64,000 bases of DNA. Origin: Patescibacteria group bacterium. GTDB taxonomy: Bacteria > Patescibacteriota > Patescibacteriia > UM-FILTER-42-10. This document shows, in pieces, positions 1-12,987 of the stretch. Each line of letters begins with the position of its first letter. The stretch's first letter is position 1. The notes under the pieces are model-generated. The model saw nothing but the letters and a program-made list of their open reading frames with translations, did not search any database and was not told the DNA's origin. The stretch lies in contig JBAYGW010000005.1 of the NCBI GenBank assembly GCA_041666485.1, positions 3,654-67,653 of the forward strand. The letters run 5' to 3'. The position numbers and the translations under genes are program-made.

Positions 1-1109
1 CTGTTTGGGAAATCGCTGAATATTACACCAAAGCTTTTAAGCATGACATTGCAGAGCTGAATATTGCAGAACCCGTGATCTGGTGCAAAGCCACAGACCA
101 CATCAAAGAGCAGATTGAACTGGTAAAAAAGCTTGAGGAAAAAGGTTATACCTATACCATTGGTGATGGAGTATATTTTGACACAAGTAAATTTGAAAGT
201 TATGGGCAGATGGCCCGACTTGATATAAAGGCACAAAAGGCCGGCGCCAGGGTAGCGGTCGTGGAAGGAAAGAAGAGTCCAAATGATTTTGCTTTGTGGA
301 AATTTTCACCAGACCCTTTGAAGGGTGAACCAAAACGCCAAATGGAATGGGAATCCCCTTGGGGAACCGGTTTCCCTGGATGGGCGATAGAATGTTCCGC
401 AATGGCGGTAAAATATTTAGGCCAGCCTTTTGATATTCATTGCGGTGGTGTGGATCATATTCCTGTTCACCATACCAATGAAATTGCACAGAGCGAAGCG
501 GCAAATGACAGGAAAATGGCAAACTATTGGCTACATGGAGAGTTCCTGATTCTCAAAGACGAAAAAATGGCTAAATCTGCCGGTAATTTCATTACTTTAG
601 AAACACTGAAAGAAAAAGGGATTAATCCCCTCGCCTATCGCTATTTACTGCTTACTACCCATTACCGTTCCAAACTGACTTTCAACTGGACAAACCTGGA
701 AGGCGCTAACACCGCGCTTAATTCCATTTACCGGCAGATGGAAGAGCTGGACAGTTCTAATCCGGTAGTTAATGAGGATTTTAAACAACAATTTGAGGAT
801 GCAATTAATGACGATTTGAATATGCCAAAAGCATTGGCCTTGGTCTGGAAAGTACTCAAATCTAATCTTCCGGCAACCGCTAAAAAAGGAACCCTGCTGG
901 AATTTGATAAAGTGCTTGGACTGGGTCTGGATAAGTCTGACCTTACAGAAGAAACACCAAAGCACGTTAAGACATTGGCAACAAAGAGGGAGCATGCGCG
1001 TTTAGCCAAGGATTTTAAGGAGGCTGATAAATTGCGGGCGGAAATTGAAGCTGAGGGATATATTGTCACTGATACATCAGAGGGGCCAAAAATTTCTAAA
1101 AAGAAATAA
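1..1109 (+). CDS. cysS: Cysteinyl-tRNA synthetase, C-terminal part (5' end lies upstream of the window)
   Basis: Frame is open from position 3. KMSKS-type motif 'KMAKSAGN'. Class I aaRS anticodon-binding region resembling CysRS. Confidence 0.85.
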   Translation, partial: VWEIAEYYTKAFKHDIAELNIAEPVIWCKATDHIKEQIELVKKLEEKGYTYTIGDGVYFDTSKFESYGQMARLDIKAQKAGARVAVVEGKKSPNDFALWKFSPDPLKGEPKRQMEWESPWGTGFPGWAIECSAMAVKYLGQPFDIHCGGVDHIPVHHTNEIAQSEAANDRKMANYWLHGEFLILKDEKMAKSAGNFITLETLKEKGINPLAYRYLLLTTHYRSKLTFNWTNLEGANTALNSIYRQMEELDSSNPVVNEDFKQQFEDAINDDLNMPKALALVWKVLKSNLPATAKKGTLLEFDKVLGLGLDKSDLTEETPKHVKTLATKREHARLAKDFKEADKLRAEIEAEGYIVTDTSEGPKISKKK

Positions 1110-1669
1110 TGTTATTATTGAATCTGGATCAGTTAATTTTTGAAAAAATTTATCAGGTTATTCCTCATAACCTGTTTTTTGATTGGTTTTTTCTGACTGT
1201 TTCAACAATTGCCCATCCGAAAATAATTTGGTTTCCTTTAATCATTTTATTTTTAATTTTTTATAAGCAGCATAAAGGCTGGGTGTTTTTTGAATCCGCG
1301 ATTGCCATCGGCATCGGCGTGGTAGTCAATGAATATATGATTAAAAATATTTTCGCACGTTTAAGGCCTTTTGAATTTTACGACTGGGTAACCACCATTG
1401 ACCACACTGCCACCGGATATTCTTTCCCATCAAGCCACGCACTGGTCGCGTTCAGTTTTGCAGCCGTAATAATTCTGAATACAAAACAAAAATGGCTGCA
1501 CAATTTACTGATTGTTTTTGCCGTATTGGTTTGCCTTTCCCGTATCTATCTGGGAGTGCATTTCCCCGGCGACGTTATCACAGGGGCCATAATCGGAACG
1601 CTGCTCGGCTGGCTGGCGTCCAAATTTCTTCCGCGCTTTTACAAGGCTCTATTTCACAAACAGATGTAA
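1109..1669 (+). CDS. PAP2-family phosphatase (undecaprenyl-diphosphate / phosphatidic acid phosphatase-like)
   Basis: PAP2 motifs 'PSSHA' and 'SRIYLGVHFPGDV'. Multiple TM segments. Start overlaps the cysS stop. Confidence 0.7.
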   Translation: MLLLNLDQLIFEKIYQVIPHNLFFDWFFLTVSTIAHPKIIWFPLIILFLIFYKQHKGWVFFESAIAIGIGVVVNEYMIKNIFARLRPFEFYDWVTTIDHTATGYSFPSSHALVAFSFAAVIILNTKQKWLHNLLIVFAVLVCLSRIYLGVHFPGDVITGAIIGTLLGWLASKFLPRFYKALFHKQM

Positions 1670-1718
1670 ATTGGTAAACAAAAAATCCCGCATTAATCTC
1701 GCTGGATTTTTTTATATT

Positions 1719-2288
1719 CTAAATATCGTATTTATATCTTTTCTTCGCTGCCGCTCCGCCTTTGATCATAATCATCAGCAAGATCGGCGCGAGTACCCAG
1801 ATAAACTGGCTGATTTCTAAAGTAAATAGTGTCTTGGTCAGCGGGGCAAGCCCTTCAATGGCTGACTTCGGCAGGAATGATAAGGTAATGCTGATCAAAA
1901 GTCCGACGTGCAAAATACTGAAAATAATCACCTGCCACCATTTTCCCCGTTCGTCAGAACTGGCGACTGTGGAGATTAAAGCGGATCGGGAAAGCATAAA
2001 AAATAACGCAACAAAAACAGCTACAAAAGCTGTTATTTTAACTACAAAGAATTGATTTACTCCGATCTCTCCGGTAGTATCCCCCAAAAACGGCGCGGTA
2101 TTGATCACGGCCATGGCCATATAGATGCTGATCAGGATTACGATAATCCGGTCACGACCCAGTGACATGCCGTAAAGCAGCGCAGCGATGACAAAAAACA
2201 GGATAATAAAGAGGTCCCAAGTTGGTTCTGACCAGTCGAAATTAGCTACCCACGAACCGGTGTCTGCTACAACTGTTGTGAAAAACAT
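1719..2288 (-). CDS. Hypothetical polytopic membrane protein
   Basis: 189-aa ORF with 5-6 hydrophobic segments. No recognisable motif. Confidence 0.4.
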   Translation of the reverse strand: MFFTTVVADTGSWVANFDWSEPTWDLFIILFFVIAALLYGMSLGRDRIIVILISIYMAMAVINTAPFLGDTTGEIGVNQFFVVKITAFVAVFVALFFMLSRSALISTVASSDERGKWWQVIIFSILHVGLLISITLSFLPKSAIEGLAPLTKTLFTLEISQFIWVLAPILLMIMIKGGAAAKKRYKYDI

Positions 2289-2394
2289 TGTGTTTCTCCC
2301 CCTTTTGTTTTATTTTAGCTGATTACTTTGTAAGTATAACACAAAAACAATAAATAGGCAATTGCGATGCCTAAATTACTGTGGATAAACTGAT

Positions 2395-3480
2395 TTAATC
2401 CAGTTTTTGCAGATTTTCCAATAATTCGCGCTGTTTCCGCGATAATTTTTCGGGTGTTTTTACGATGATTTCTACCAACTGATCGCCCCTACCCCGGGCA
2501 TTCAGGTGCATAACCCCCTTGCCTTTGATTTTGAAAACTTTACCGGATTGAGTGCCGGCCGGAACCCTTAACTGCCCTTCGCCGTCCAAAGTATTTACAT
2601 TGATTTTATCTCCCAATGCCGCCTGGGCAAAACTGATTTCCGCAACTGTAAAAACATTGTCCCCGTCCCGCTGAAATTCCGCGTGCGGTATAACTCGGAT
2701 GGAAACATACAAATCTCCCGCCTGACTTCCGCGCTGACCCGCTTCCCCTTCGCCGGAAAGACGGATGGACTGTCCGTTATTGATACCGGCCGGAATTTTT
2801 ATCTTAATCCGCTTGCTGGCACGCTCCACACCGGTGCCACGGCAGTTTGTACATTTATCTTTAATAGTCTTTCCTTCGCCTTTGCATTCCGGGCATATTC
2901 CACGGGTTCGGATCTGTCCTAAAATAGTTCTTTGCAGCTGATCCACCTGGCCGGAACCTTTGCACATCGGACATTCCACAATCCCGCTGGAGCTTTCCGC
3001 TCCGGAACCGCTGCATTTTTCGCAAGTAACTGTTTTATAAAGTTCCACTGTTTTTTCCGCGCCGAACGCCGCCTCTTCAAAAGTAACCTGCATTTCTGTT
3101 TCAATATCCATACCTCTTTGCTGGCGCGCGCTGGCTCTTGCTCTGCCTCCGCCGAAGAAGTCGCCGAAGATATCGCCCAGATCGCCAAAATCAAAATTTA
3201 TCCCGTCCGCTCCGCCGAACCCTGCTTGCCTGGGGTCAAATCCGGCACCGCCTGAAAAGCCACCCTGCTGGTCAAAAGCTGAGCCGAACTGGTCGTATTG
3301 TTTACGCTTGTCTTCCTTAGAAAGCACCTGATAAGCCTGATTTAATTCCTTAAACTTGGCTTCATCACCGGTATTTTTATCCGGGTGATATTGATGCGCT
3401 TTTTTCCGGAACGCTTTTTTGATTTCTTCCTGCGAAGCGTCTTTTGCTACGCCTAAAATTTCATAATAATCTGTTGCCAT
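2395..3480 (-). CDS. dnaJ: Chaperone DnaJ
   Basis: N-terminal J domain ('DYYEILGV...HPD'), G/F-rich linker, four CxxCxGxG zinc-finger repeats, C-terminal domains. Confidence 0.92.
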
Positions 3481-3491
3481 ATCGTTTCTTC

Positions 3492-4634
3492 CTATTCTCC
3501 CAATATTAATACATCAACATCTTTCTTTTCCTGAGTGATACGCACGAATTTAGTTGCAAATAAAATCATGAAAATTAAGGATGTAAACGAATTGATTAAG
3601 GTCAAAAATATAAATCCGAACAAATTTAACGCAAAGAATAAACTTAAAGCCAAAAGCGGTGTGATGAAATCCTCGTACGGTCCCAGGAACTGAAATGCGT
3701 ATTTGCGAATAATTTTTGCAATCACTTCCGAAAGTTTATCCGACCCCTTGGCGTCAATACCGACACTTTTGATAAATTCATCACGGGCATCGTTAATCTG
3801 CTCCTGAAAAATATTTTGTACGAAAGCAGATGATACCAGAGTTTGCGCGGATAGATCTTCGCTGTACAGACTATCCCGAATTTCGGGCGGCAGGGCATTA
3901 ATATCCACTTCCCCGCTCAGCACCTTGTTCCGCAAGTCATCAATCAGCGCCTGACCTTCTTTCACCTTCGGGCTGTTTATTGAATCTTCCAACTCTTGAT
4001 TCAGCTGACCACTGATACTTTCCACTACGCCGGCGCTCGTTTCAAAAATAAACTGGTCAAGCGTTTTGTCCGGATCATATCCTTTGATCTGAGTTGGGAT
4101 GATTTCATTGGCAATATTGGTGCTACTTATAATCAAAGAGTCAATTGCCTGACGCCCGCTATCTCTGTCCTGTTCCGAAGTAACGATATAGAATAGCATG
4201 GAAATAGAGAGCGCCATTGCCACCACCACTCCGCCGATTCCCCAGTGCATGATCTTGTACAAGGAAAACTTGATTCTTCCTTTCACCTCGTTATGCGTCC
4301 GGTGCGCATAGTACACGAAGATTAATATCTGTAAAAGAGAGATAATTAAAAGCCAGGGTGAGAAAGAGAAAAAGAGAAGCATCGGCAAACTGGAGAGCGC
4401 CCAGATTGGCAATTGGATTACTTCTTTCTTCACTACGATCGCGGTTGTGCTTACCAAAGCCAGATAAAAACAAAAAGCAATGACCGGGAAGATTAACCGG
4501 AGCAGCATCTGCCAGATGGATAGGTTTTGGCCGGACCATTCCAGATTGAAAACCGTAGACAAAGCATACCAAGCCAGCACGCTGGCTAAAACAGTCAGCA
4601 CCCCTAAAACAGCTATTTTGGTATTCTTGGTCAT
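3492..4634 (-). CDS. Hypothetical membrane protein (inserted between dnaK and dnaJ)
   Basis: 380-aa ORF with several N-terminal TM helices, a central acidic soluble region and C-terminal TM helices. No family recognised. Confidence 0.45.
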
Positions 4635-4651
4635 GGTTTTGTTTTATTTAA

Positions 4652-4972
4652 TTATGCTTTGAAGCCGACTTCGTCCGCCGGAGCATCCGTAACATCTATT
4701 GTACCAAAATTTGCCTCATAGCGCTTGACGTTGTCCTGCAGTGCCAAAAGAACACGTTTCATGTGGCCCGGTGAGGTTTTTACGCGGTTGGTAACCACGC
4801 CCACGCCTTCCGCCTGGTGAATATTGATAAAATCAATCGTAAACTCGTCTTTGGTATGCATGACGCGCATGCTGTTCGCGTAATTGGATCCGGCTAATAC
4901 GCTTTCCGGGATCTTAATTTGCATTTGTCGCTGTTGCCCTTGCGGGGGCTGTTGGCTTTGTTGTTGTGGCAT
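4652..4972 (-). CDS. Small hypothetical protein, DUF3467-like
   Basis: 106 aa, Q-rich N-terminus. Motif 'YANSMRVMHTKDEFTIDF' resembles the DUF3467 core as recalled from memory. Confidence 0.4.
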   Translation of the reverse strand: MPQQQSQQPPQGQQRQMQIKIPESVLAGSNYANSMRVMHTKDEFTIDFINIHQAEGVGVVTNRVKTSPGHMKRVLLALQDNVKRYEANFGTIDVTDAPADEVGFKA

Positions 4973-4980
4973 GGGTATTA

Positions 4981-6045
4981 TTATAGTTGGTTAATTAATT
5001 TGGTAAGCTTCTCTTTGGTAAATGTATTCATCTGCCACTTGCCAAGTCTCGCATACAATCTATTTGCCAAGTCACTTGGTCTGTTCGGGTTAGGGATGAT
5101 TTCAGCAATGAGTTGTTGTGATTTTTTCCAAGCGTCGTTTCCGTACGTCCAAGTATCTATTCCTCCTCCTTCATATGCCGGATCAATCCAAAGTGAAAAC
5201 GTGGTCTTGCCGTGATCATGTTCTACGGTGATAGTAGCCGTCTTTGGCGTTTTGTGGGCTGACACACCAGGTAGCACGAATCTGCCCTCGTTAATATCAT
5301 GAAATATATCCAAATATTCTTGCGCGGGTTTTTCTTGTTTGACTTCGGTATAGGCAGAAATAAAGTCTTGATCAGAGGGTAATCCCGGCTTTGTTTTGGA
5401 GGTCAGGTCTTTTTTCACTTCACTGCCGAATAACCTCGGGATGACTATTTCGTATGACCCATGCTTGTAGTATTTAAGTTCCACGGCGAAGATATCAAAT
5501 TCGCTGTTTTGGTTGATGTAAATGATGAGGTTTTTTAGCTGTTCGTGGAGCGAATCCATGAGTACCACGAATTTGAAACTGCCATCCTGGAAGCTTCGCC
5601 GTACTTGCTGGAGCAATTGGTCACGGCCTTCGTCAGTAAGCCCAAAGAATTCTTGCATTCTGGTGGGCAGTTCCGGTAGATTTTGTTTTACTAAATATGT
5701 ATTCAATTGCTCAAGGAAAGTATTCGCGTCACGTGTGTTGTGCCACAAGGACGCGCCGTAATCCAAGACCTGGGCGACTACTTTGCGCTTGTCCGGATTT
5801 TTATACAGCTTCGTTTCGATCAAATAAATGTCTCCGGTGTTGTCTATACCGACCGCATCAATGGGTCCGCTGTCAGTGGAAAATTCCCGGGCGAGAATAA
5901 GCAGTTTAATATCGTCTCTAATGTCATAGATCGGAACGCTTTCTGGGTTGTTGAAAATGTATTCTTGCAGAGAGTCTTCTTGGGGGAATGATGTAGGGTC
6001 TACTTTCTCCGCTCTTTTGCCGTTGTGAGTGATAATTAATGTCAT
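4981..6045 (-). CDS. Predicted PD-(D/E)xK nuclease (NucS/DUF91-like catalytic core) with an uncharacterised C-terminal domain
   Basis: 'GPIDAVGIDNTGDIYLIETKLYKN...VVAQVLDYGASLWH' matches the D...D-x-E-x-K plus 'QxxxY' architecture of NucS/DUF91/Shedu-type nucleases. About 230 aa of unknown function follow. Confidence 0.55.
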   Translation of the reverse strand: MTLIITHNGKRAEKVDPTSFPQEDSLQEYIFNNPESVPIYDIRDDIKLLILAREFSTDSGPIDAVGIDNTGDIYLIETKLYKNPDKRKVVAQVLDYGASLWHNTRDANTFLEQLNTYLVKQNLPELPTRMQEFFGLTDEGRDQLLQQVRRSFQDGSFKFVVLMDSLHEQLKNLIIYINQNSEFDIFAVELKYYKHGSYEIVIPRLFGSEVKKDLTSKTKPGLPSDQDFISAYTEVKQEKPAQEYLDIFHDINEGRFVLPGVSAHKTPKTATITVEHDHGKTTFSLWIDPAYEGGGIDTWTYGNDAWKKSQQLIAEIIPNPNRPSDLANRLYARLGKWQMNTFTKEKLTKLINQL

Positions 6046-6125
6046 ATGTGGATGGTATTTTTAATTTTAATAAATATTCCATTAAACTGAAGGTGGGAAT
6101 GCGCATTCCCACCTTCAGCTACTGT

Positions 6126-8048
6126 TTACTTATCCTTTTTTTCTTCTTTCTTTTCCTCAGTAAACTCGCCTTCTACCGGTTCTTTGTCTCCTTCTTTTTT
6201 CTCACCGGATTTATCAGCGTCGGCTTTTTTAGCCGCTTCTTCTTTCTGTTGTGCTTCATACATCGCCTGCCCGATCTTCTGGGCGGCGGTGGAGAGTTCT
6301 TCGGTCGCTTTTTTGATCGCTTCCACGTCGTCTTTGTCTTTCACATCATTAACCGCTTTTACCTTTTCTTCCACAGCTTTTTTATCTTCTTCCTTAATCT
6401 TATCTCCGCCTTCTTTGATCGCTTTTTCAGAAGTGATCACCATGGTTTCCGCCATGTTGCGGGCTTCAATCAGATTTTTCTTTTTCTTATCTTCTTCAGC
6501 GTGGATTTCCGCGTCTTTCTTCATCTTTTCCACTTCCTCATCGGACAGTCCGGAAGAAGCTTCAATACGGATGCTTTGTTCTTTATTGGTTGCTTTATCC
6601 TTTGCTTTCACGCTCAGAATTCCGTTGGCATCAATATCAAAGCCGACTTCCACCTGCGGGATTCCGCGCGGTGACGGAGGAATGCCATCCAGGATGAATC
6701 TGCCCAGTGATTTGTTATCGCTGGCCATTTCTCTTTCACCCTGCAGGACGTGAATCTCCACCGATGTCTGATTGTCTGCTGCGGTAGAAAATACCTGACT
6801 CTTGGATGCTGGGATTGTGGTGTTCTTTTCAATTAGCGGTGTGCGTACTCCGCCTAAAGTTTCGATACCTAGTGTTAACGGTGTAACGTCCAATAACAGC
6901 ACGTCTTTTACTTCTCCCTGCAAAACGCCGGCTTGTACAGCAGCGCCGATTGCTACTACTTCATCCGGGTTTACGGTTGAGTTCGGTTTTTTGCCGAAGA
7001 ATTCTTCTACCTTCTTCTGTACCAAAGGCATTCTGGTTTGTCCGCCGACTAATACGATTTCATTCATGTCTTTGGCTTCCAGGCCGGCATCTTTCAATGC
7101 CTTTTTGCAAGGTTCCAGAGTCTTTTCCACGAAATCACCGACAATATCTTCCAGTTTGGCGCGGGTCAGTTTTAATACCAAATGTTTCGGGCCGGATTCA
7201 TCCGTTGTGATGAACGGCTGGTTGATTTCCGTTTCCTGCGTGGATGACAGTTCTATTTTGGCTTTTTCCGCGGCTTCCTTGATTCTCTGCAGAGCCAGAT
7301 TGTCCTTGGACAGGTCAATTCCCTGATCCTTTTTGAATTCATCCAGAATCCAATGCATGATGCGCTGGTCAAAGTCATCTCCGCCGAGGTGCGTGTCGCC
7401 GTTGGTGGCTTTCACTTCCACAGTGTCATCGCCGATTTCCAAAATGGAAATATCAAATGTTCCGCCGCCCAAGTCATAGACCGCGATCTTTTCGTCTTTC
7501 TTCTTGTTGAACCCGTAAGCCAGCGCTGCGGCGGTCGGTTCGTTGATAATTCTTTTTACGTCAAACCCGGCAATCTTGCCCGCGTCTTTGGTCGCCTGCC
7601 TCTGTGAGTCGTCAAAATAGGCCGGTACGGTAATTACCGCTTCGGTTATTTTCTCACCCAGTTTGTCTTCGGCATCCGCCTTCAGTTTCTGCAGAATCAT
7701 CGCGGATACTTCCTGCGGGGTGTGCTGTTTATCACCCATTTTTACCGTCACACCGTCATTGTTTTTTTCAATTTTGTACGGAAGAGTCTTCGCATCATTC
7801 TGGACCTCATCATCTTCCCATCTGCGACCGATCAGACGCTTCACGGAAAATACCGTATTTTCCGGATTGGTTACCGCCTGTCTTTTGGCCAGCTGGCCGA
7901 CTAAGCGTTCTCCGCTTTTGGAAATTGCGACCACGGAAGGAGTGGTGCGGTTTCCTTCTTTATTTTCCAGCACTTTCGGCTCGCCCCCTTCAACGATCGC
8001 CATCGCTGAGTTGGTGGTACCGAGATCAATACCTAATATCTTTGCCAT
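6126..8048 (-). CDS. dnaK: Chaperone DnaK (Hsp70)
   Basis: '[16 protein letters not shown]', 'DLGGGTFD' and full Hsp70 architecture with a K/E-rich tail. Confidence 0.96.
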
Positions 8049-8106
8049 TTTACTTAATTCCTTTCTTTAATGATTGATAATGTTTAATAAGTTGGTCTTT
8101 TGAACC

Positions 8107-8157
8107 CGGGCGGACGAACGAATGAATCGCTCATCCGCCCGGAGCCAGAAGCTCCGG
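8107..8157 (-). terminator. Pair of overlapping, mutually exclusive GC-rich hairpins between hsp20 and dnaK (possible terminator/attenuator)
   Basis: CGGGCGGA...TCCGCCCG (8107-8141) and CCGGAGC-cagaa-GCTCCGG (8139-8157) share 3 nt. A weak T-run follows on the minus strand. Confidence 0.3.
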
Positions 8158-8164
8158 ATGATTC

Positions 8165-8596
8165 CTATTTGGAACCTTTTTTTAATACGTTTACTTTGAT
8201 TGTTTTTGGCATTACCTGTTCCGCTTTGGGAATAGTAATTTTTAGAATTCCGTTTTCAAAATCGGCATTGGCCTTATCACCGTCTACGGCAATCGGCAAT
8301 GCTACTGCGCGGTGGAATCCGCCGGTTCTTACCTCTTTGCGGTAATATTCCTTTTCATCTACTTCCGACTTCTTTTCCATAGAACCTTCAATGGTTAATA
8401 CATCATTTTCAATGGAAATATTTACCTTTTCCGGATCAACGCCGGCTAATGGTGTTTCCACAATTACCGAGTCCTTTGTCTGATAGACGTCAATCGCCGG
8501 AACGAATCCGCTGGACATGCCGGACATATATTCTTCCATAAATTTGTCCATGTCATCCCAAGGCTGGATCATCGGGCGATATTTCATAATATGCAT
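8165..8596 (-). CDS. Small heat-shock protein, Hsp20/alpha-crystallin family
   Basis: 143 aa. Alpha-crystallin domain pattern ('AVDVYQTKDSVIVETPLAGV...ENGILKITIPK'). Confidence 0.85.
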   Translation of the reverse strand: MHIMKYRPMIQPWDDMDKFMEEYMSGMSSGFVPAIDVYQTKDSVIVETPLAGVDPEKVNISIENDVLTIEGSMEKKSEVDEKEYYRKEVRTGGFHRAVALPIAVDGDKANADFENGILKITIPKAEQVMPKTIKVNVLKKGSK

Positions 8597-8622
8597 ATAT
8601 TTATCTCCTTGTTTGTTAATAA

Positions 8623-9132
8623 TTATTTTGCTACTTTGACTTTCGCCGGCTGGATTACCCTGCCGTTTAAACGAAAGCCAGTTGTTAATTCTTCTGTTAT
8701 CATTCCTTTTTCTAAATCTGACTCCACTTCTTCAATCGCCTCGTGCATCTCCGGATTAAACTGTTCACCGACTGTTTTGATTTCTTCAATTCCCAAACCT
8801 TTTAATATATTACTTAAATTATTCTGAATGTGCGTGATTCCGACCAGCCAGTTGGAACCCTCAATTTCCTTCGGCACATGTTTCATCGCCTGTTTAAACT
8901 GGTCCACAAGCGGAAATATGTCCAAAAGCATCCCCGCGTTAGCAAATTCAATCAATTCTGTCTGTCTTTGCTCCTGTTCCCTTTTGAAATTGATATAATC
9001 CGCCTTAGCGCGCTTCCAACCGTTGAGATACTCTTCCGCCTGGTTTTTCGCGGTTTCTAATTCTTTTTGAATGTTCTGATGCGGTTCCTGTACCTGTTTC
9101 TCGTGCTTATCGTGTTTATCGTGATGAGTCAT
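8623..9132 (-). CDS. grpE: Nucleotide exchange factor GrpE
   Basis: Coiled-coil N-terminus, GrpE C-terminal domain. Sits between hrcA and hsp20/dnaK. Confidence 0.85.
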   Translation of the reverse strand: MTHHDKHDKHEKQVQEPHQNIQKELETAKNQAEEYLNGWKRAKADYINFKREQEQRQTELIEFANAGMLLDIFPLVDQFKQAMKHVPKEIEGSNWLVGITHIQNNLSNILKGLGIEEIKTVGEQFNPEMHEAIEEVESDLEKGMITEELTTGFRLNGRVIQPAKVKVAK

Positions 9133-9141
9133 AAATATTGA

Positions 9142-9861
9142 TTACAAATTAGTTATAAGCTCCTGAGTGTATTTGATCAGCGCCCGGTTGTGGGAGTAAT
9201 TCATCCGCATCGGACCGAGGATTGCGATCAAACCCTCTTTATGGTCACTTTGAAATTTAGTTAAAATTGTACTGCATTGCTTGCCGAACGGATTATTTTT
9301 CCCCAGTAGAATATGCACGTCTCTGCTGATATCGTTGTAAATTCCCGCTACCGCTTCGTCCAGATGATCAATCACTTCGCTCAAATTGTAAATTAGATTC
9401 AGCTCGGCAAATTCCGGTTGTCGGAAAACATTGGTCAGACCGGTATAGTAAATATCTCTGGGCGAAAACCCCACCACCACCGCGCCGTTGGAAAGCGCCG
9501 CGACTTCCTTTGCCACCTGTTTCACCACCAATGAATCCTCGTTGTCTGATTTAAGAATTTCCTGCAACTGACTTTTGTGCTTTTCGCTTAAATCCTTTTC
9601 ATCCATAAAATTATCAATAAAAAAGCGGTAACCTTTTTCTGTTGGAATTCGTCCTGCTGAAGTATGGGGCTGAGTCAGATAGCCGTCTTTCTCCAGATCC
9701 ATCATTTCGTTGCGGATGGTGGCTGTAGACAAGTCAAAACCGCCTTTACCCACCAATAGGTTAGAACCAACCGGTATGGCGGTTTTAATATGCTGTTTGA
9801 TGATTGCCGCAAGCAGGGCTTTTTTACGATCGTTTAGCTCCATATTTGTATCCATTAGCAC
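9142..9861 (-). CDS. hrcA: Heat-inducible transcription repressor HrcA (short form). The true start is probably the downstream Met at 9843, because the CIRCE operator overlaps the first ATG.
   Basis: N-terminal winged-helix 'RKKALLAAIIKQHIKTAIPVGSNLL'. Position upstream of grpE-dnaK. CIRCE lies immediately 5'. Confidence 0.75.
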   Translation of the reverse strand: MLMDTNMELNDRKKALLAAIIKQHIKTAIPVGSNLLVGKGGFDLSTATIRNEMMDLEKDGYLTQPHTSAGRIPTEKGYRFFIDNFMDEKDLSEKHKSQLQEILKSDNEDSLVVKQVAKEVAALSNGAVVVGFSPRDIYYTGLTNVFRQPEFAELNLIYNLSEVIDHLDEAVAGIYNDISRDVHILLGKNNPFGKQCSTILTKFQSDHKEGLIAILGPMRMNYSHNRALIKYTQELITNL

Positions 9862-9881
9862 TCTTAATGGTAGAGTGCTAA
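9855..9881. promoter_or_regulatory. CIRCE operator (HrcA binding site), perfect inverted repeat TTAGCACTC-N9-GAGTGCTAA
   Basis: Exact match to the CIRCE consensus at 9855-9863 / 9873-9881. Confidence 0.9.
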
Positions 9882-9884
9882 TTC

Positions 9885-9912
9885 AGTATAGCATACCAAA
9901 AAAAGGGGTCAA
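9885..9912 (-). promoter_or_regulatory. Sigma-70-type promoter for the hrcA operon (TTGACC-16-TATACT on the minus strand), directly abutting CIRCE
   Basis: -35 at 9907-9912 (ggtcaa on plus strand), -10 at 9885-9890 (agtata on plus strand). Confidence 0.5.
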
Positions 9913-9919
9913 GTCCCCT
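9898..9919 (-). terminator. Hairpin AGGGG-tcaagt-CCCCT followed by a T-run on the minus strand. Likely terminator of the glycosyltransferase gene. Overlaps the hrcA -35.
   Basis: Seen at 9904-9919. The A7 tract at 9898-9904 on the plus strand gives a U-run on the minus strand. Confidence 0.45.
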
Positions 9920-9970
9920 GCTTTCCCTCGTTTAACTATAAATTAATTCAATCGGAAAGCGGTATTTTCC

Positions 9971-11245
9971 TTACTTTTTCCTTTTCTTATTATCCAAGGA
10001 TTCCATGAAATGCTCTATGATATCAACTGCCCGGTTGCCGTTACGGTATGAACGGATTGCTTTTTTGAATTTTTGCGCGTTCTTACGGTATTTATTGTGT
10101 TTTAATATTTTTTCAATCGCAAACCGGATTTCCGACGGTTTAACATCCAGAGCGTCTTTCAGCAGGGAATTCGGATTGACCCAGGTTGGTTTGATCGGAT
10201 TCAGGTTAATACCGCATTTCAGGCGTTCAATTCTTTTGGCGTTATACCACTGTCCGTAGTTATGCGGAATTACAATGCATGGCTTACCGTATTTCAAAGC
10301 CTGCATAACCGTGCCATGCCCGCCGTGATGAATGACAATATCACTGATCTCACATGCTCTCTGGCCGGGTAAATAGGTTTCCACCCACACATTTTTCGGT
10401 AGTTTGCCGATTTTCCTTTTATTGAAATTCGGTCCGAGACTGACAATCAACTGGTAGTCAGAATCCGTGATTGCTTCAACCGTATTATTGAACATATCCT
10501 GATTATAGATTGTTCCGCCAAGGGAAAGATAAATGATCGGCTTGTTTTTATTCAAGTCCTTAAACCAAGCCGGCTCTTTTTTTTCAAAACCCTTCCAGAG
10601 CAACGGGCCGACAAAATAAGCATCACTCGGCAGCGGAGAAAGCGAATTATATTCCGGAACATCCGCAACCAGTTTGAGATCCGCGTCGTACTGGGCATAA
10701 ACCGAAGCTTTAGCATACTGGTCGGATACTTTATGAAAAGGAACCTTCATCGCCTGGCGCGAAATAAAATTTACAAAAATCCAGCCGATAAAATAGTAAA
10801 ACTGGTTTAAAAGTTTCTTTTCGGAAAGATCCAGACCGTTTCCCTTCCAGAATTCTTTGAGGTAAATTGAATTGGCGATCGTAATCCACGGCACTTTTTT
10901 TATTCGGGTGGAGATACAGGCGGTAGTCCGCTTGTCAGAAATTACAACATCCGGTTTATATTTATCAATAATTGATAAATCTTCCTGCACGTAATTGGAA
11001 AGCAAATCCAAATATTCATTTTTCTGGGCAAATTTATACTCCTCCGCCACGTCAAAACTGGTTGATGGCGCCAGTGTATAAGTTCCGTAACCGGCTTTAC
11101 GCACAAAATTCCGCTTATCCATACTGACGGCAAAGCGGATATGATATTTAGACTTCGGCAACAGATCAGCAATCGCCAAACAACGGGTGATATGCGCCAA
11201 CCCGTCGGAGTGCGGAAGAAACAGAATTTTTTTTCTTTTGATCAT
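9971..11245 (-). CDS. GT1-family (UGT/MGT-like) glycosyltransferase
   Basis: C-terminal nucleotide-sugar binding signature 'HHGGHGTVMQALKYGKPCIVIPH'. 424 aa. Confidence 0.7.
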   Translation of the reverse strand: MIKRKKILFLPHSDGLAHITRCLAIADLLPKSKYHIRFAVSMDKRNFVRKAGYGTYTLAPSTSFDVAEEYKFAQKNEYLDLLSNYVQEDLSIIDKYKPDVVISDKRTTACISTRIKKVPWITIANSIYLKEFWKGNGLDLSEKKLLNQFYYFIGWIFVNFISRQAMKVPFHKVSDQYAKASVYAQYDADLKLVADVPEYNSLSPLPSDAYFVGPLLWKGFEKKEPAWFKDLNKNKPIIYLSLGGTIYNQDMFNNTVEAITDSDYQLIVSLGPNFNKRKIGKLPKNVWVETYLPGQRACEISDIVIHHGGHGTVMQALKYGKPCIVIPHNYGQWYNAKRIERLKCGINLNPIKPTWVNPNSLLKDALDVKPSEIRFAIEKILKHNKYRKNAQKFKKAIRSYRNGNRAVDIIEHFMESLDNKKRKK

Positions 11246-11248
11246 TCT

Positions 11249-11866
11249 TTAATGTGAATAAGGTTTCCCGGATAATTTGGCTATTTCCTGCATAACTTCC
11301 CCGGTGGCCTTGTATAAAAGCTCTTTGGTAATTTCTTGATTATAATATTTGTCTAACGTAATCGGCTTGCCGACTTTAATCTTCGCTCTGCCGATCCCTT
11401 TGAAAAAATCTTTAAAAGACGCCTTAACAGTAGAGCCGCGCGGGCCGTCAATCCCGACCGGCACAACCGGTACCCTGTTAATGATGGCTAGTCTGGCCAC
11501 GCCGGTTTTACCTTTTGCTAATTCTCTATCAGGATTAGCTTTGCCTTCAGGAAATATACCAACAACTTCGCCTCTTTTCAATACCCCGTCTAGTTTTTCC
11601 AGGGCGCCTGCGCGATTTTCCGGATCAATCGGTACCGCGTCAAAAATCCGGTAATTCCCCGTCTTCGCAATAAAATTGATATGCCGGTTGATTGTTTTTA
11701 TTACCGGCGCCAGCAGAATATATTGGTCAAAATAACTGACATGATTTGCGGCAATTATAAAAGCACCGCTCTGCGGAATGTTTTCACAACCCTCGGGCTT
11801 TTTGGTAAGCAAATTAGTAAAAAAATATATCGGTCTGACAAACCAGGAATTAAGTCGTATTTTCAT
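11249..11866 (-). CDS. 1-acyl-sn-glycerol-3-phosphate acyltransferase-like (PlsC family)
   Basis: HX4D motif 'NHVSYFD'. 'FPEG' motif. Confidence 0.7.
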   Translation of the reverse strand: MKIRLNSWFVRPIYFFTNLLTKKPEGCENIPQSGAFIIAANHVSYFDQYILLAPVIKTINRHINFIAKTGNYRIFDAVPIDPENRAGALEKLDGVLKRGEVVGIFPEGKANPDRELAKGKTGVARLAIINRVPVVPVGIDGPRGSTVKASFKDFFKGIGRAKIKVGKPITLDKYYNQEITKELLYKATGEVMQEIAKLSGKPYSH

Positions 11867-11868
11867 AT

Positions 11869-12987
11869 TTACAGTTTTAAAGATTTTCTGCGGATATAGA
11901 CACTCTCAACGATACCAATTGAAAGTAAGCTCATCATCAGCGAACTTCCTCCGGCGCTGATGAATGGCAGAGGCAATCCGGCGACCGGTGCCAAACCCAG
12001 ATTCATCCCGATATTAATGAACATCTGTACCACAATCATTACCATAATCCCCCAGGCCGCGTAAATGCCGAAATCATCCTGCGCAACCCGGATAATTCTG
12101 ATAATCCGCCAAAATAAAAGCCCAAATATGGAAATTACGAAAAAAACGCCAATAAATCCCAGCTCTTCTGCAATCACGGCAAAAACAAAATCCGTTTCTT
12201 TTGCCGGCAAGAAATTTAAACGGCTCTGCGGGCCGAGCGAAAGACCCCTACCCCAAAACTGGCCGGAACCGATGGAAATAATGGACTGACTGACATTATA
12301 GCCCTGCTTCAGCGGGTCGCGCGTCGGTTGAACAAAATTGAGCACACGTTCTTTCTGGTAATCAGCCAGGAAAAACCAGCTGACAAACATCACCAAAAGC
12401 ATTGTACCCAGGATAATCAGGATGTGCGACTTTTTGATCCTGGTCAGCCAGGTCATCCCCGCCCAGATTGAAATAAAAATAATTGCGGATCCTAAATCCG
12501 GCTGCATCAGTACCAGCAATACCGGCAGGGCGATGAATGATGCGCTGATCAAAACGTTTTTGAAAGTAAACGGCTCGGATGCCTTATGCGCCAGGTATCG
12601 GGCCAGAAAAATAATCATCAGTATTTTTACAATTTCTACCGGCTGAAAAACCTGTCCAAAAAAAGAATACCAGCCTTTGGTACCGCGCACCGTAATACCG
12701 AAAAATAGCACCCCCAATAAAAGTGACACCCCCACCCAATAAATAATATTGGCATACCCCCTCAAAAACCGGTAATCAAAAAAGGCCAGGCTGAATAAGA
12801 AAATTATTCCCAGGCCAAAAGCCACTGACTGCGTGATCAACAAACTGAACGATCCGCCTTCCTGATTGACTGAAATGCTGTAAATAGCCAGCAACCCGAA
12901 CAGCACCAGAATGGTTACAATAATAAACAGGATCCAGTCAAACTTTTTAAATTGAGATAAGTATTTATCAAATATCATACCGATCAA
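11869..12987 (-). CDS. SEDS-family peptidoglycan glycosyltransferase (FtsW/RodA)
   Basis: About 10 TM helices. Conserved SEDS blocks ('PDLGSA', 'AEELGFIG'). Confidence 0.8.
   Translation of the reverse strand: MIGMIFDKYLSQFKKFDWILFIIVTILVLFGLLAIYSISVNQEGGSFSLLITQSVAFGLGIIFLFSLAFFDYRFLRGYANIIYWVGVSLLLGVLFFGITVRGTKGWYSFFGQVFQPVEIVKILMIIFLARYLAHKASEPFTFKNVLISASFIALPVLLVLMQPDLGSAIIFISIWAGMTWLTRIKKSHILIILGTMLLVMFVSWFFLADYQKERVLNFVQPTRDPLKQGYNVSQSIISIGSGQFWGRGLSLGPQSRLNFLPAKETDFVFAVIAEELGFIGVFFVISIFGLLFWRIIRIIRVAQDDFGIYAAWGIMVMIVVQMFINIGMNLGLAPVAGLPLPFISAGGSSLMMSLLSIGIVESVYIRRKSLKL

Follow-up and report, generated by a model that had tools for sequence, protein, structure and literature searches.

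An apparent three-gene insertion between dnaK and dnaJ in Patescibacteria, read as a probable single-gene capture in a variable operon slot

The interrupted dnaK-dnaJ pair and its sister loci

Why are the genes of the near-universal dnaK-dnaJ pair separated by three others in a Patescibacteria group bacterium, and did these three arrive together? The question is raised by a stretch of 64,000 nucleotides (assembly GCA_041666485.1, contig JBAYGW010000005.1, positions 3,654 to 67,653), referred to here as the window. In it, dnaK and dnaJ enclose the genes for a nuclease-like protein (ORF-A; ORF, open reading frame), a small DUF3467 protein (ORF-B) and a polytopic membrane protein (ORF-C, here called memC). 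An initial annotation had taken them for a captured toxin/defence-type module. Comparison with related loci points to a different arrangement. We consider it probable that the locus has two layers, an old dnaK operon that includes DUF3467 and memC, and a gene-turnover slot that holds the captured ORF-A.

The ORF check confirmed three co-oriented genes on the minus strand, ORF-A at 4981..6045 (354 amino acids, aa), DUF3467 at 4652..4972 (106 aa) and memC at 3492..4634 (380 aa, directly upstream of dnaJ), between dnaK (6126..8048) and dnaJ (2395..3480). ORF-A was assigned by PADLOC, conserved residues, Foldseek and the contexts of its homologs, ORF-B by Pfam, and memC by hydropathy and synteny; in the Pfam scan, neither ORF-A nor ORF-C matched a family above threshold. 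The gaps between the genes had been given as 8-19 nt, which holds for ORF-A/DUF3467 (8 nt), DUF3467/memC (17 nt) and memC/dnaJ (11 nt), but not for dnaK/ORF-A, where the gap measures 80 nt and holds a 16-bp hairpin.

A word-indexed search with memC returned 12 homologs of 44-91% identity, and from their contigs four sister loci were obtained. Their outer flanks match the window, from a glycosyltransferase gene to hrcA on one side and with dnaJ, a 189-aa ORF, PAP2, cysS, AAA and CorA on the other. All four carry DUF3467 and memC between dnaK and dnaJ, as do many more distant contigs, and ORF-A is absent from all of them. In L006 (memC 91% identical), dnaK is followed by ORFs of 138 aa, 47 aa (opposite strand) and 236 aa before DUF3467-memC-dnaJ. 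The same place is taken in L001 (memC 83%) by one ORF of 232 aa, in L002 (memC 70%) by two of 211 and 196 aa, and in L003 (memC 55%) by ORFs of 158 and 245 aa, an IS200-type Y1 transposase and a 90-aa ORF on the opposite strand.

At the DNA level, the window and L006 are 87% identical over 12000..6150 and 85.5% identical over 4983..3 (blastn), while homology with L001 covers 9920..6091 and 4982..3. The non-homologous segment between these blocks, ~1.1 kb at 4983..6090 on the minus strand, runs from just after the dnaK hairpin to the stop codon of ORF-A, 8 nt before the DUF3467 ATG, and holds ORF-A with a 45-nt leader only. Since homology to the sister genomes breaks at ~6090 and resumes at 4983, only ORF-A is recent, and of the three genes it alone appears, as judged from sequence, to be a horizontal capture. 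The GC skew of the cassette differs from that of dnaK and dnaJ; as the skew of DUF3467 and memC is shifted likewise, it is not diagnostic for the cassette.

At NCBI, a protein with 100% identity to ORF-A is recorded for a metagenome-assembled genome of a "Patescibacteria group bacterium", and contigs of three samples carry the identical protein in this same dnaK setting. In the assembly ERZ27249449 both alleles of the slot are present, one with the nuclease (L175) and one with the 138-aa/DUF218 cargo (L006), on contigs whose flanks are ~87% identical. Two related populations with different cargo therefore coexist in this metagenome.

DUF3467, memC and the variable slot

ORF-B was correctly suspected to be a Q-rich, DUF3467-like protein. 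It matches PF11950 with 72.7 bits (cutoff 25, E=2.6e-20) over profile positions 4-91 of 92. Its AlphaFold2 (AF2) model shows a beta-beta-beta-alpha core, with a predicted local distance difference test score (pLDDT) of ~90 at residues 34-89; the N-terminus is disordered and rich in Q and P. A sequence-profile search of the PDB gave no match for the protein, and a suspected SecB-like fold was supported neither by fold nor by profile searches.

A metagenome scan with the DUF3467 alignment yielded 80 loci, in which chaperone genes were located by tblastn with the window proteins. dnaJ lies downstream on the same strand in 21 of the 37 loci with at least 2.5 kb of downstream sequence, and dnaK lies upstream in 16 of the 34 with at least 4 kb upstream. 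Both flanks are adequate in 28 loci, of which 15 have dnaK and dnaJ and 11 have neither. As DnaK in the DUF3467-linked loci is 56-99% identical to that of the window, the linkage covers a wide radiation. DUF3467 has other neighbours outside this clade. In an unrelated lineage (L137:2686-4861), it is found directly downstream of putative hslV and hslU genes, recognized by eye from N-terminal sequences, which would be another protein-quality-control neighbourhood. Literature searches for DUF3467 and for the dnaK operon together with Patescibacteria returned nothing relevant, the sole full-text mention of DUF3467 being unrelated.

The membrane protein suggested for ORF-C is in agreement with its hydropathy, which indicates ~5 N-terminal and 1-2 C-terminal transmembrane segments. 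Between them lies an acidic soluble domain of ~170 aa (~155-320, 31 D/E versus 16 K/R), followed by a hydrophobic block at 322-364. At least 10 loci of the DUF3467 scan have a memC-like ORF (25-54% identity) that separates DUF3467 from dnaJ. A memC profile retrieved 613 clusters at 50% identity, 242 of them at E<=1e-10 and most with proteins of 300-420 aa; this family is unnamed. One distant member (E=7e-20) lies in the order hrcA-grpE-dnaK-Tad4-memC-dnaJ, and in another the stop codon overlaps the start codon of dnaJ, whose product begins with MKDYYDILGV.

The initial annotation had regarded DUF3467 and memC as part of a recent insertion; their presence at the same position in every relative examined speaks for the opposite, an outcome that the annotation itself had named as a refutation. 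Sequence comparison indicates that both are old, vertically inherited members of the operon, tightly packed with dnaJ. From the conserved position and the tight coupling to dnaJ, we tentatively propose that they act with DnaJ/DnaK. Judged by synteny, their most likely role would be that of DnaJ/DnaK accessory factors or one in membrane-protein quality control. They might even represent unrecognized components of the DnaK-DnaJ system in Patescibacteria, for example a small adaptor together with a membrane anchor, by which DnaJ would be recruited to the membrane or regulated there. Their retention between dnaK and dnaJ over a wide radiation, at times with apparent translational coupling to dnaJ, prompts this idea, which we hold loosely.

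The interval between dnaK and DUF3467 varies strongly. Across 24 loci with both genes co-oriented, the dnaK stop codon and the DUF3467 match are 50-2860 nt apart, which corresponds to a slot of 0-2.9 kb with 0-5 genes. Lineages lacking memC mostly have dnaK and DUF3467 adjacent, with no ORF between them (gaps of 50-216 nt in L093, L101, L104, L106, L110, L117 and L120), and the memC-bearing clade has one to five ORFs in this place. In some lineages dnaK, DUF3467 and dnaJ are direct neighbours. The cargo of 12 distinct slots falls into 26 clusters, almost all private to one lineage. Recognizable among it are Y1_Tnp, DUF218, a 23S_rRNA_IVP four-helix protein, a Clp_N/LonB-lid-like protein and, on the opposite strand, a sigma-70-family protein (Sigma70_r2). 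From these sequences, the slot is a general hotspot of gene turnover. In a distant relative (L173:4496-4837), a Tad4 gene (PF25186) on the opposite strand occupies the slot between dnaK and memC; DUF3467 is absent there.

The ORF-A family and competing explanations

ORF-A belongs to a family of >1548 homologs of ~355 aa. Residues ~1-215 comprise a NucS-like PD-(D/E)xK nuclease module with an alpha/beta region, and residues ~225-354 a distinct C-terminal domain. The N-terminal 215 residues are strongly conserved, with E77-T78-K79 and the block KNPDKRxVVAQVLDYGA invariant or nearly so, while the C-terminal 140 residues are variable. Twenty family members share E54, D63, E77-x-K79 and Q92 without exception. 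In the AF2 model, strands at 48-57, 60-68 and 73-78 are followed by a helix at 86-103. Among PDB structures, Foldseek ranks NucS/EndoMS first (E=3.9e-3, probability 1.0), followed by the AdnA nuclease domain, Card1, HincII and SduA. These matches are weak but consistent and support the PD-(D/E)xK fold for ORF-A. A structural match was also found in BFVD, to Gp54 of Bacillus phage G (E=4e-9).

The closest catalogued defence candidate is PDC-S11, in line with the initial reading of the first gene as a PD-(D/E)xK nuclease of a defence-candidate family. PADLOC matched ORF-A to PDC-S11 (PDLC04916, residues 10-204, E=1.3e-15) and, more weakly, to PDC-S18, in both cases with the N-terminal half only. 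A canonical PDC-S11 protein, encoded on an E. coli plasmid, aligns with ORF-A over residues 20-214 by BLASTP (25% identity, E=2e-11) and over 17-215 by hhalign (96% probability); beyond residue 215, neither program aligned anything. This canonical protein matches PDLC04913 over its full length (positions 1-373 of 375, E=6e-169), carries DUF4268 (PF14088) at residues 238-372 (E=1.4e-35) and is encoded next to SIR2, ATPase, IS66 and type II restriction genes. PDC-S11 from E. coli ECOR34, named Madara, restricts T4 with glucosyl-hydroxymethylcytosine (glucosyl-hmC) and not T4(C), and depends for defence on its nuclease Asp (D63A); its N-terminal domain is of the NucS-like PD-(D/E)xK type and its C-terminal one is EVE-like (bioRxiv 10.64898/2026.09.05.749240). 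By analogy, ORF-A most likely works like a stand-alone nuclease of the PDC-S11 type. We lean towards an active restriction-like endonuclease directed against foreign DNA, in which the C-terminal domain would select the target, possibly modified DNA.

Relatives of ORF-A, with 50-60% identity over the N-terminal 215 aa, occur in 315 of 185,579 GTDB species representatives. The bacterial hosts include many Patescibacteria classes, Trichlorobacter/Geobacter, Ignavibacteriota, Planctomycetota, Verrucomicrobiia, Chloroflexia and Elusimicrobia, and the archaeal ones Woesearchaeota, Nanoarchaeota, Thermoplasmata and Methanomicrobia; two genomes have two copies each. This patchy distribution across domains at such identity is the pattern of horizontal transfer.

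Outside the window lineage, the genes keep different company, the closest homologs being found in mobile-element or defence settings. None of 80 fetched loci (819 kb) has DnaK, DnaJ, GrpE, HrcA, Hsp20, DUF3467 or memC within 6 kb of the ORF-A homolog. An 88% identical homolog lies 3' of small and large terminase genes, with SLFN_AlbA_2, an S24 repressor, NERD and an MmeI-type restriction-modification gene nearby. Two others (81% and 62%) directly follow a large serine recombinase gene, itself preceded by a ParB-N6/N4 methyltransferase gene, and the locus of the 62% homolog additionally holds a methyltransferase, NOV_C and an SNF2 helicase. With the locus of the 81% homolog, DNA similarity is limited to the ORF-A gene and 15 nt of its leader. 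A 46% homolog (L090) adjoins a BsaWI-type restriction enzyme and a LexA-fused methyltransferase; 2.5 kb downstream of it, at L090:10643-10909, there is a weak DUF3467-like ORF of 88 aa, probably a coincidence. By tblastn, matches confined to the N-terminal part were found on 257 plasmids.

Several results weigh against an operon with a captured defence nuclease. The AF2 model of ORF-A is of moderate quality (pLDDT 73.7) and its PDB matches are weak, with E=3.9e-3 for the best. No full-length match to PDC-S11 was found in PADLOC, the best one covering profile positions 12-181 of 358, and DUF4268 gave no match at E<=0.1 in ORF-A and four family members. As ORF-A lacks these two features of PDC-S11, the C-terminal domain and the full-length profile match, we class it as a variant sharing the nuclease module, and because only the N-terminal half is shared, a Madara-like mode of action is extrapolated. 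At the DNA level, no direct or inverted flanking repeats, att-like sites or recombinase were found in 4800-6300 beyond chance-size matches, and there is no recombinase gene among the ORFs of the window's slot. The cassette therefore lacks the signature of a transposon or integrative-element insertion, and its GC content (0.43-0.46) is the same as that of the flanks. For the older layer, ~40% of the well-flanked DUF3467 loci have neither dnaK nor dnaJ nearby, and Foldseek matched the DUF3467 model only non-significantly to PUR-alpha/PC4-like PDB structures (E>0.1). The slot was also considered as a defence island and rejected as such, since PADLOC found nothing convincing in the cargo of the other slots.

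ORF-A could instead be a selfish or element-maintenance gene, serving as a replication aid, in competitor exclusion or in counter-defence, that was left in the slot after an element had passed. Its closest homologs directly downstream of large serine recombinase or terminase genes, the structural homolog in Bacillus phage G, the N-terminal homologs on the 257 plasmids, and the IS200-type transposase and Tad4 in the slots of relatives are all consistent with this. Defence genes are commonly carried on mobile elements as well, so the contexts of the homologs do not discriminate between a defence and an element gene. Against an element gene stand the lack of any sequence match to ORF-A among 50,697 phage genomes (tblastn), the protection of the host by PDC-S11/Madara, the sole experimentally tested relative of the nuclease module, and the occurrence of ORF-A, intact and identical, in three samples without other element genes. 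Together, these observations make an element gene unlikely.

A housekeeping repair nuclease of the NucS/EndoMS type, placed in a heat-shock operon because stress needs repair, is very improbable. It would agree with NucS/EndoMS as the best PDB match in fold and sequence, and with the reduced repair repertoires of Patescibacteria. Yet the NucS matches are far below thresholds and limited to the catalytic core: ORF-A scores 21.6 bits against NCBIfam NF003270 (cutoff 216) and 13.2 against Pfam NucS_C (cutoff 24), a PDB profile search reached 2vld only at E=0.21, and the N-terminal DNA-binding domain of NucS (NucS_N) gave no match in ORF-A. An identification of ORF-A as NucS was rejected for these scores and the missing domain. 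A repair function would also fit poorly with the patchy cross-domain distribution including genomes with two copies, with the absence of ORF-A from the sister genomes, and with contexts elsewhere that are of the mobile-element or restriction-modification type.

That the genes of the nuclease, DUF3467 and memC were captured together, as a single toxin/defence module inserted between dnaK and dnaJ, as their common orientation, the gaps of 8 and 17 nt, the defence-candidate family of the nuclease and the DUF3467-like ORF of L090 had made conceivable, is scarcely credible, since DUF3467 and memC occur without the nuclease in every relative and the nuclease without both in 80 of 80 loci, homology to the sister DNA resumes exactly at the nuclease stop codon, and PADLOC has no match for DUF3467 or memC. 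The recent capture postulated for the module thus stands for the nuclease, while the three-gene unit and the expected co-occurrence in defence catalogues do not.

Operon signals and comparison with known systems

Upstream of the three genes, the operon comprises hrcA (9142..9861, ORF call and Pfam), grpE (8623..9132, PF01025, E=3.8e-38), hsp20 (8165..8596, PF00011, E=6e-18) and dnaK (PF00012, E=1.8e-260); dnaJ is of type I with J domain, Zn finger and C-terminal domain. All eight genes are on the minus strand within 2395-9861, and DnaJ, HSP70, HSP20, GrpE, HrcA and DUF3467 were all recognized by Pfam. For hrcA, the ATG at 9843 is more likely the true start, giving a protein of 233 aa that matches its relatives. 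A perfect operator of the controlling inverted repeat of chaperone expression (CIRCE) type, TTAGCACTC-N9-GAGTGCTAA, lies at 9855..9881 (0 mismatches, 0 expected by chance). A promoter-like site directly upstream of CIRCE and hrcA, at 9885..9912 on the minus strand (sigma-70-like, TTGACC-16-TATACT, TG-extended), is a consensus match only. No second CIRCE was found elsewhere in the 64-kb window. Every operon locus that covers this region has CIRCE upstream of hrcA, and in no case does it stand before DUF3467 or memC; in 14 of 15 operon loci it is confined to the hrcA position. In L159, a second CIRCE-like element with 1 mismatch (7282-7308) lies just upstream of dnaJ, and an additional gene sits between DUF3467 and dnaJ, which suggests that dnaJ regains its own HrcA control once uncoupled.

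The hairpin after dnaK (6087..6118, minus strand) has a perfect 16-bp stem, a 4-nt loop and a weak U-tail, with a folding energy (dG) of -31.9 kcal/mol (z=-6.5); none of 200 shuffles was as stable. The variable slot has its left edge here, and the hairpin represents a putative attenuator, terminator or stabilizer of the mRNA 3' end. L001, L002, L003 and L006 each have their own GC-rich perfect hairpin right after the dnaK stop codon, so that the sequence differs and the structure is kept. A REP-like repeat was considered for the window hairpin and dismissed, as it occurs once in the window. In L006, a second, nested inverted repeat of ~90 nt (6200-6290) lies 3' of the hairpin and resembles a miniature inverted-repeat element; for the whole 141-nt stretch, dG is -73 (z=-9.6). 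The 116-nt hsp20-dnaK spacer (window 8049-8170, minus strand) folds into two stable hairpins as well (dG -42 kcal/mol, z=-5.3), which might act ahead of dnaK as a thermosensor, a processing site or an internal terminator. Rfam gave no match anywhere in 2000-10200, this spacer included; the hairpins are thus not a known RNA thermometer or motif. Promoter-like matches in the region (11) are no more common than in shuffled sequence (14.8 expected) and give no grounds for calling an internal promoter. The operon probably ends at a terminator-like hairpin with T-run downstream of dnaJ (2355..2373, minus strand).

Co-transcription of the inserted genes with the chaperone genes under CIRCE/HrcA control, as initially proposed, is plausible given the single CIRCE at hrcA, and no more than plausible given the strong hairpin between dnaK and the nuclease gene. 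In other bacteria, stem-loops after dnaK are thought to lower downstream expression relative to dnaK; by analogy, the hairpin of the window may do the same. In the two-layer reading, the first layer would be hrcA-grpE-hsp20-dnaK-DUF3467-memC-dnaJ, transcribed from a single promoter, with a single CIRCE/HrcA operator ahead of hrcA and a stable hairpin directly after dnaK. The second would be the interval from this hairpin to the DUF3467 start codon, which takes up different cargo in each relative. ORF-A, a probable type IV-like defence gene travelling on mobile elements, would have entered it alone by horizontal transfer. It may be expressed by read-through of the hairpin, at a low and possibly heat-inducible level, or from a promoter of its own, and its product would cut foreign DNA, possibly modified, with the family-specific C-terminal domain providing target sensing or specificity. 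A slot behind the dnaK hairpin possibly gives captured genes stress-inducible, low-level expression in general.

Beyond dnaJ, the 189-aa ORF (window 1719-2288, minus strand) encodes a multi-pass membrane protein without a Pfam family. Its position is kept in L001, L002 and L006, and its start is preceded by the terminator-like hairpin and a promoter-like site (2361..2333). About 7 kb past dnaJ, L001 (16837-17143) and L006 (16816-17143) encode a large VirD4/TrwB-like protein (T4SS-DNA_transf, DUF87); the counterpart of this region falls outside the start of the window.

The apparent three-gene defence module would thus reduce to an ordinary event, in which one mobile restriction-like gene entered a hotspot, and to an underlying conserved feature that had gone unreported: in a broad group of Patescibacteria the dnaK-dnaJ pair is split by DUF3467 and often also by memC. 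We regard the DUF3467-memC-dnaJ linkage as a more novel lead than the capture of the nuclease, as it provides DUF3467, a family without known function, with a concrete and testable hypothesis of a DnaK/DnaJ accessory. The ORF-A family takes the NucS-like module of PDC-S11/Madara, joined to a new C-terminal domain, into bacteria of the candidate phyla radiation (CPR) and into DPANN archaea, and should help to catalogue type IV-like defences in organisms whose defence systems are little known.

Among known systems, integration hotspots flanked by core genes resemble the dnaK slot in their fixed flanks, here dnaK and DUF3467, with unrelated content between relatives, and in a cargo that includes a transposase, a defence-type nuclease and an anti-defence-like gene. 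The slot differs from them in being very small and situated inside a stress operon, in that most of its cargo is not recognizably defence, and in that no recombinase target or repeat was identified at the window cassette. With NucS/EndoMS (PDB 2vld, 5gke), ORF-A shares the PD-(D/E)xK core with D-(13)-E-x-K spacing; unlike them, it has the nuclease at the N-terminus and a patchy, mobile distribution. PDC-S11/Madara and ORF-A are both single-gene proteins of ~350-390 aa with a homologous N-terminal NucS-like module and alpha/beta region, found on mobile elements beside restriction-modification or defence genes. PDC-S11/Madara has an EVE-like DUF4268 C-terminus, whereas the C-terminal third of ORF-A is unrelated by sequence; the hosts of the ORF-A family, unlike those of PDC-S11/Madara, are CPR, DPANN and other environmental lineages, and the activity of ORF-A is a prediction. 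The operon as a whole resembles the CIRCE/HrcA-controlled dnaK operon of the B. subtilis type, with hrcA first, a perfect CIRCE at the promoter, the order grpE-dnaK-dnaJ and a stem-loop after dnaK. Unlike that operon, it has hsp20 before dnaK, DUF3467 and a membrane protein gene between dnaK and dnaJ, as in a broad Patescibacteria-like clade, and a variable cargo slot after the dnaK hairpin.

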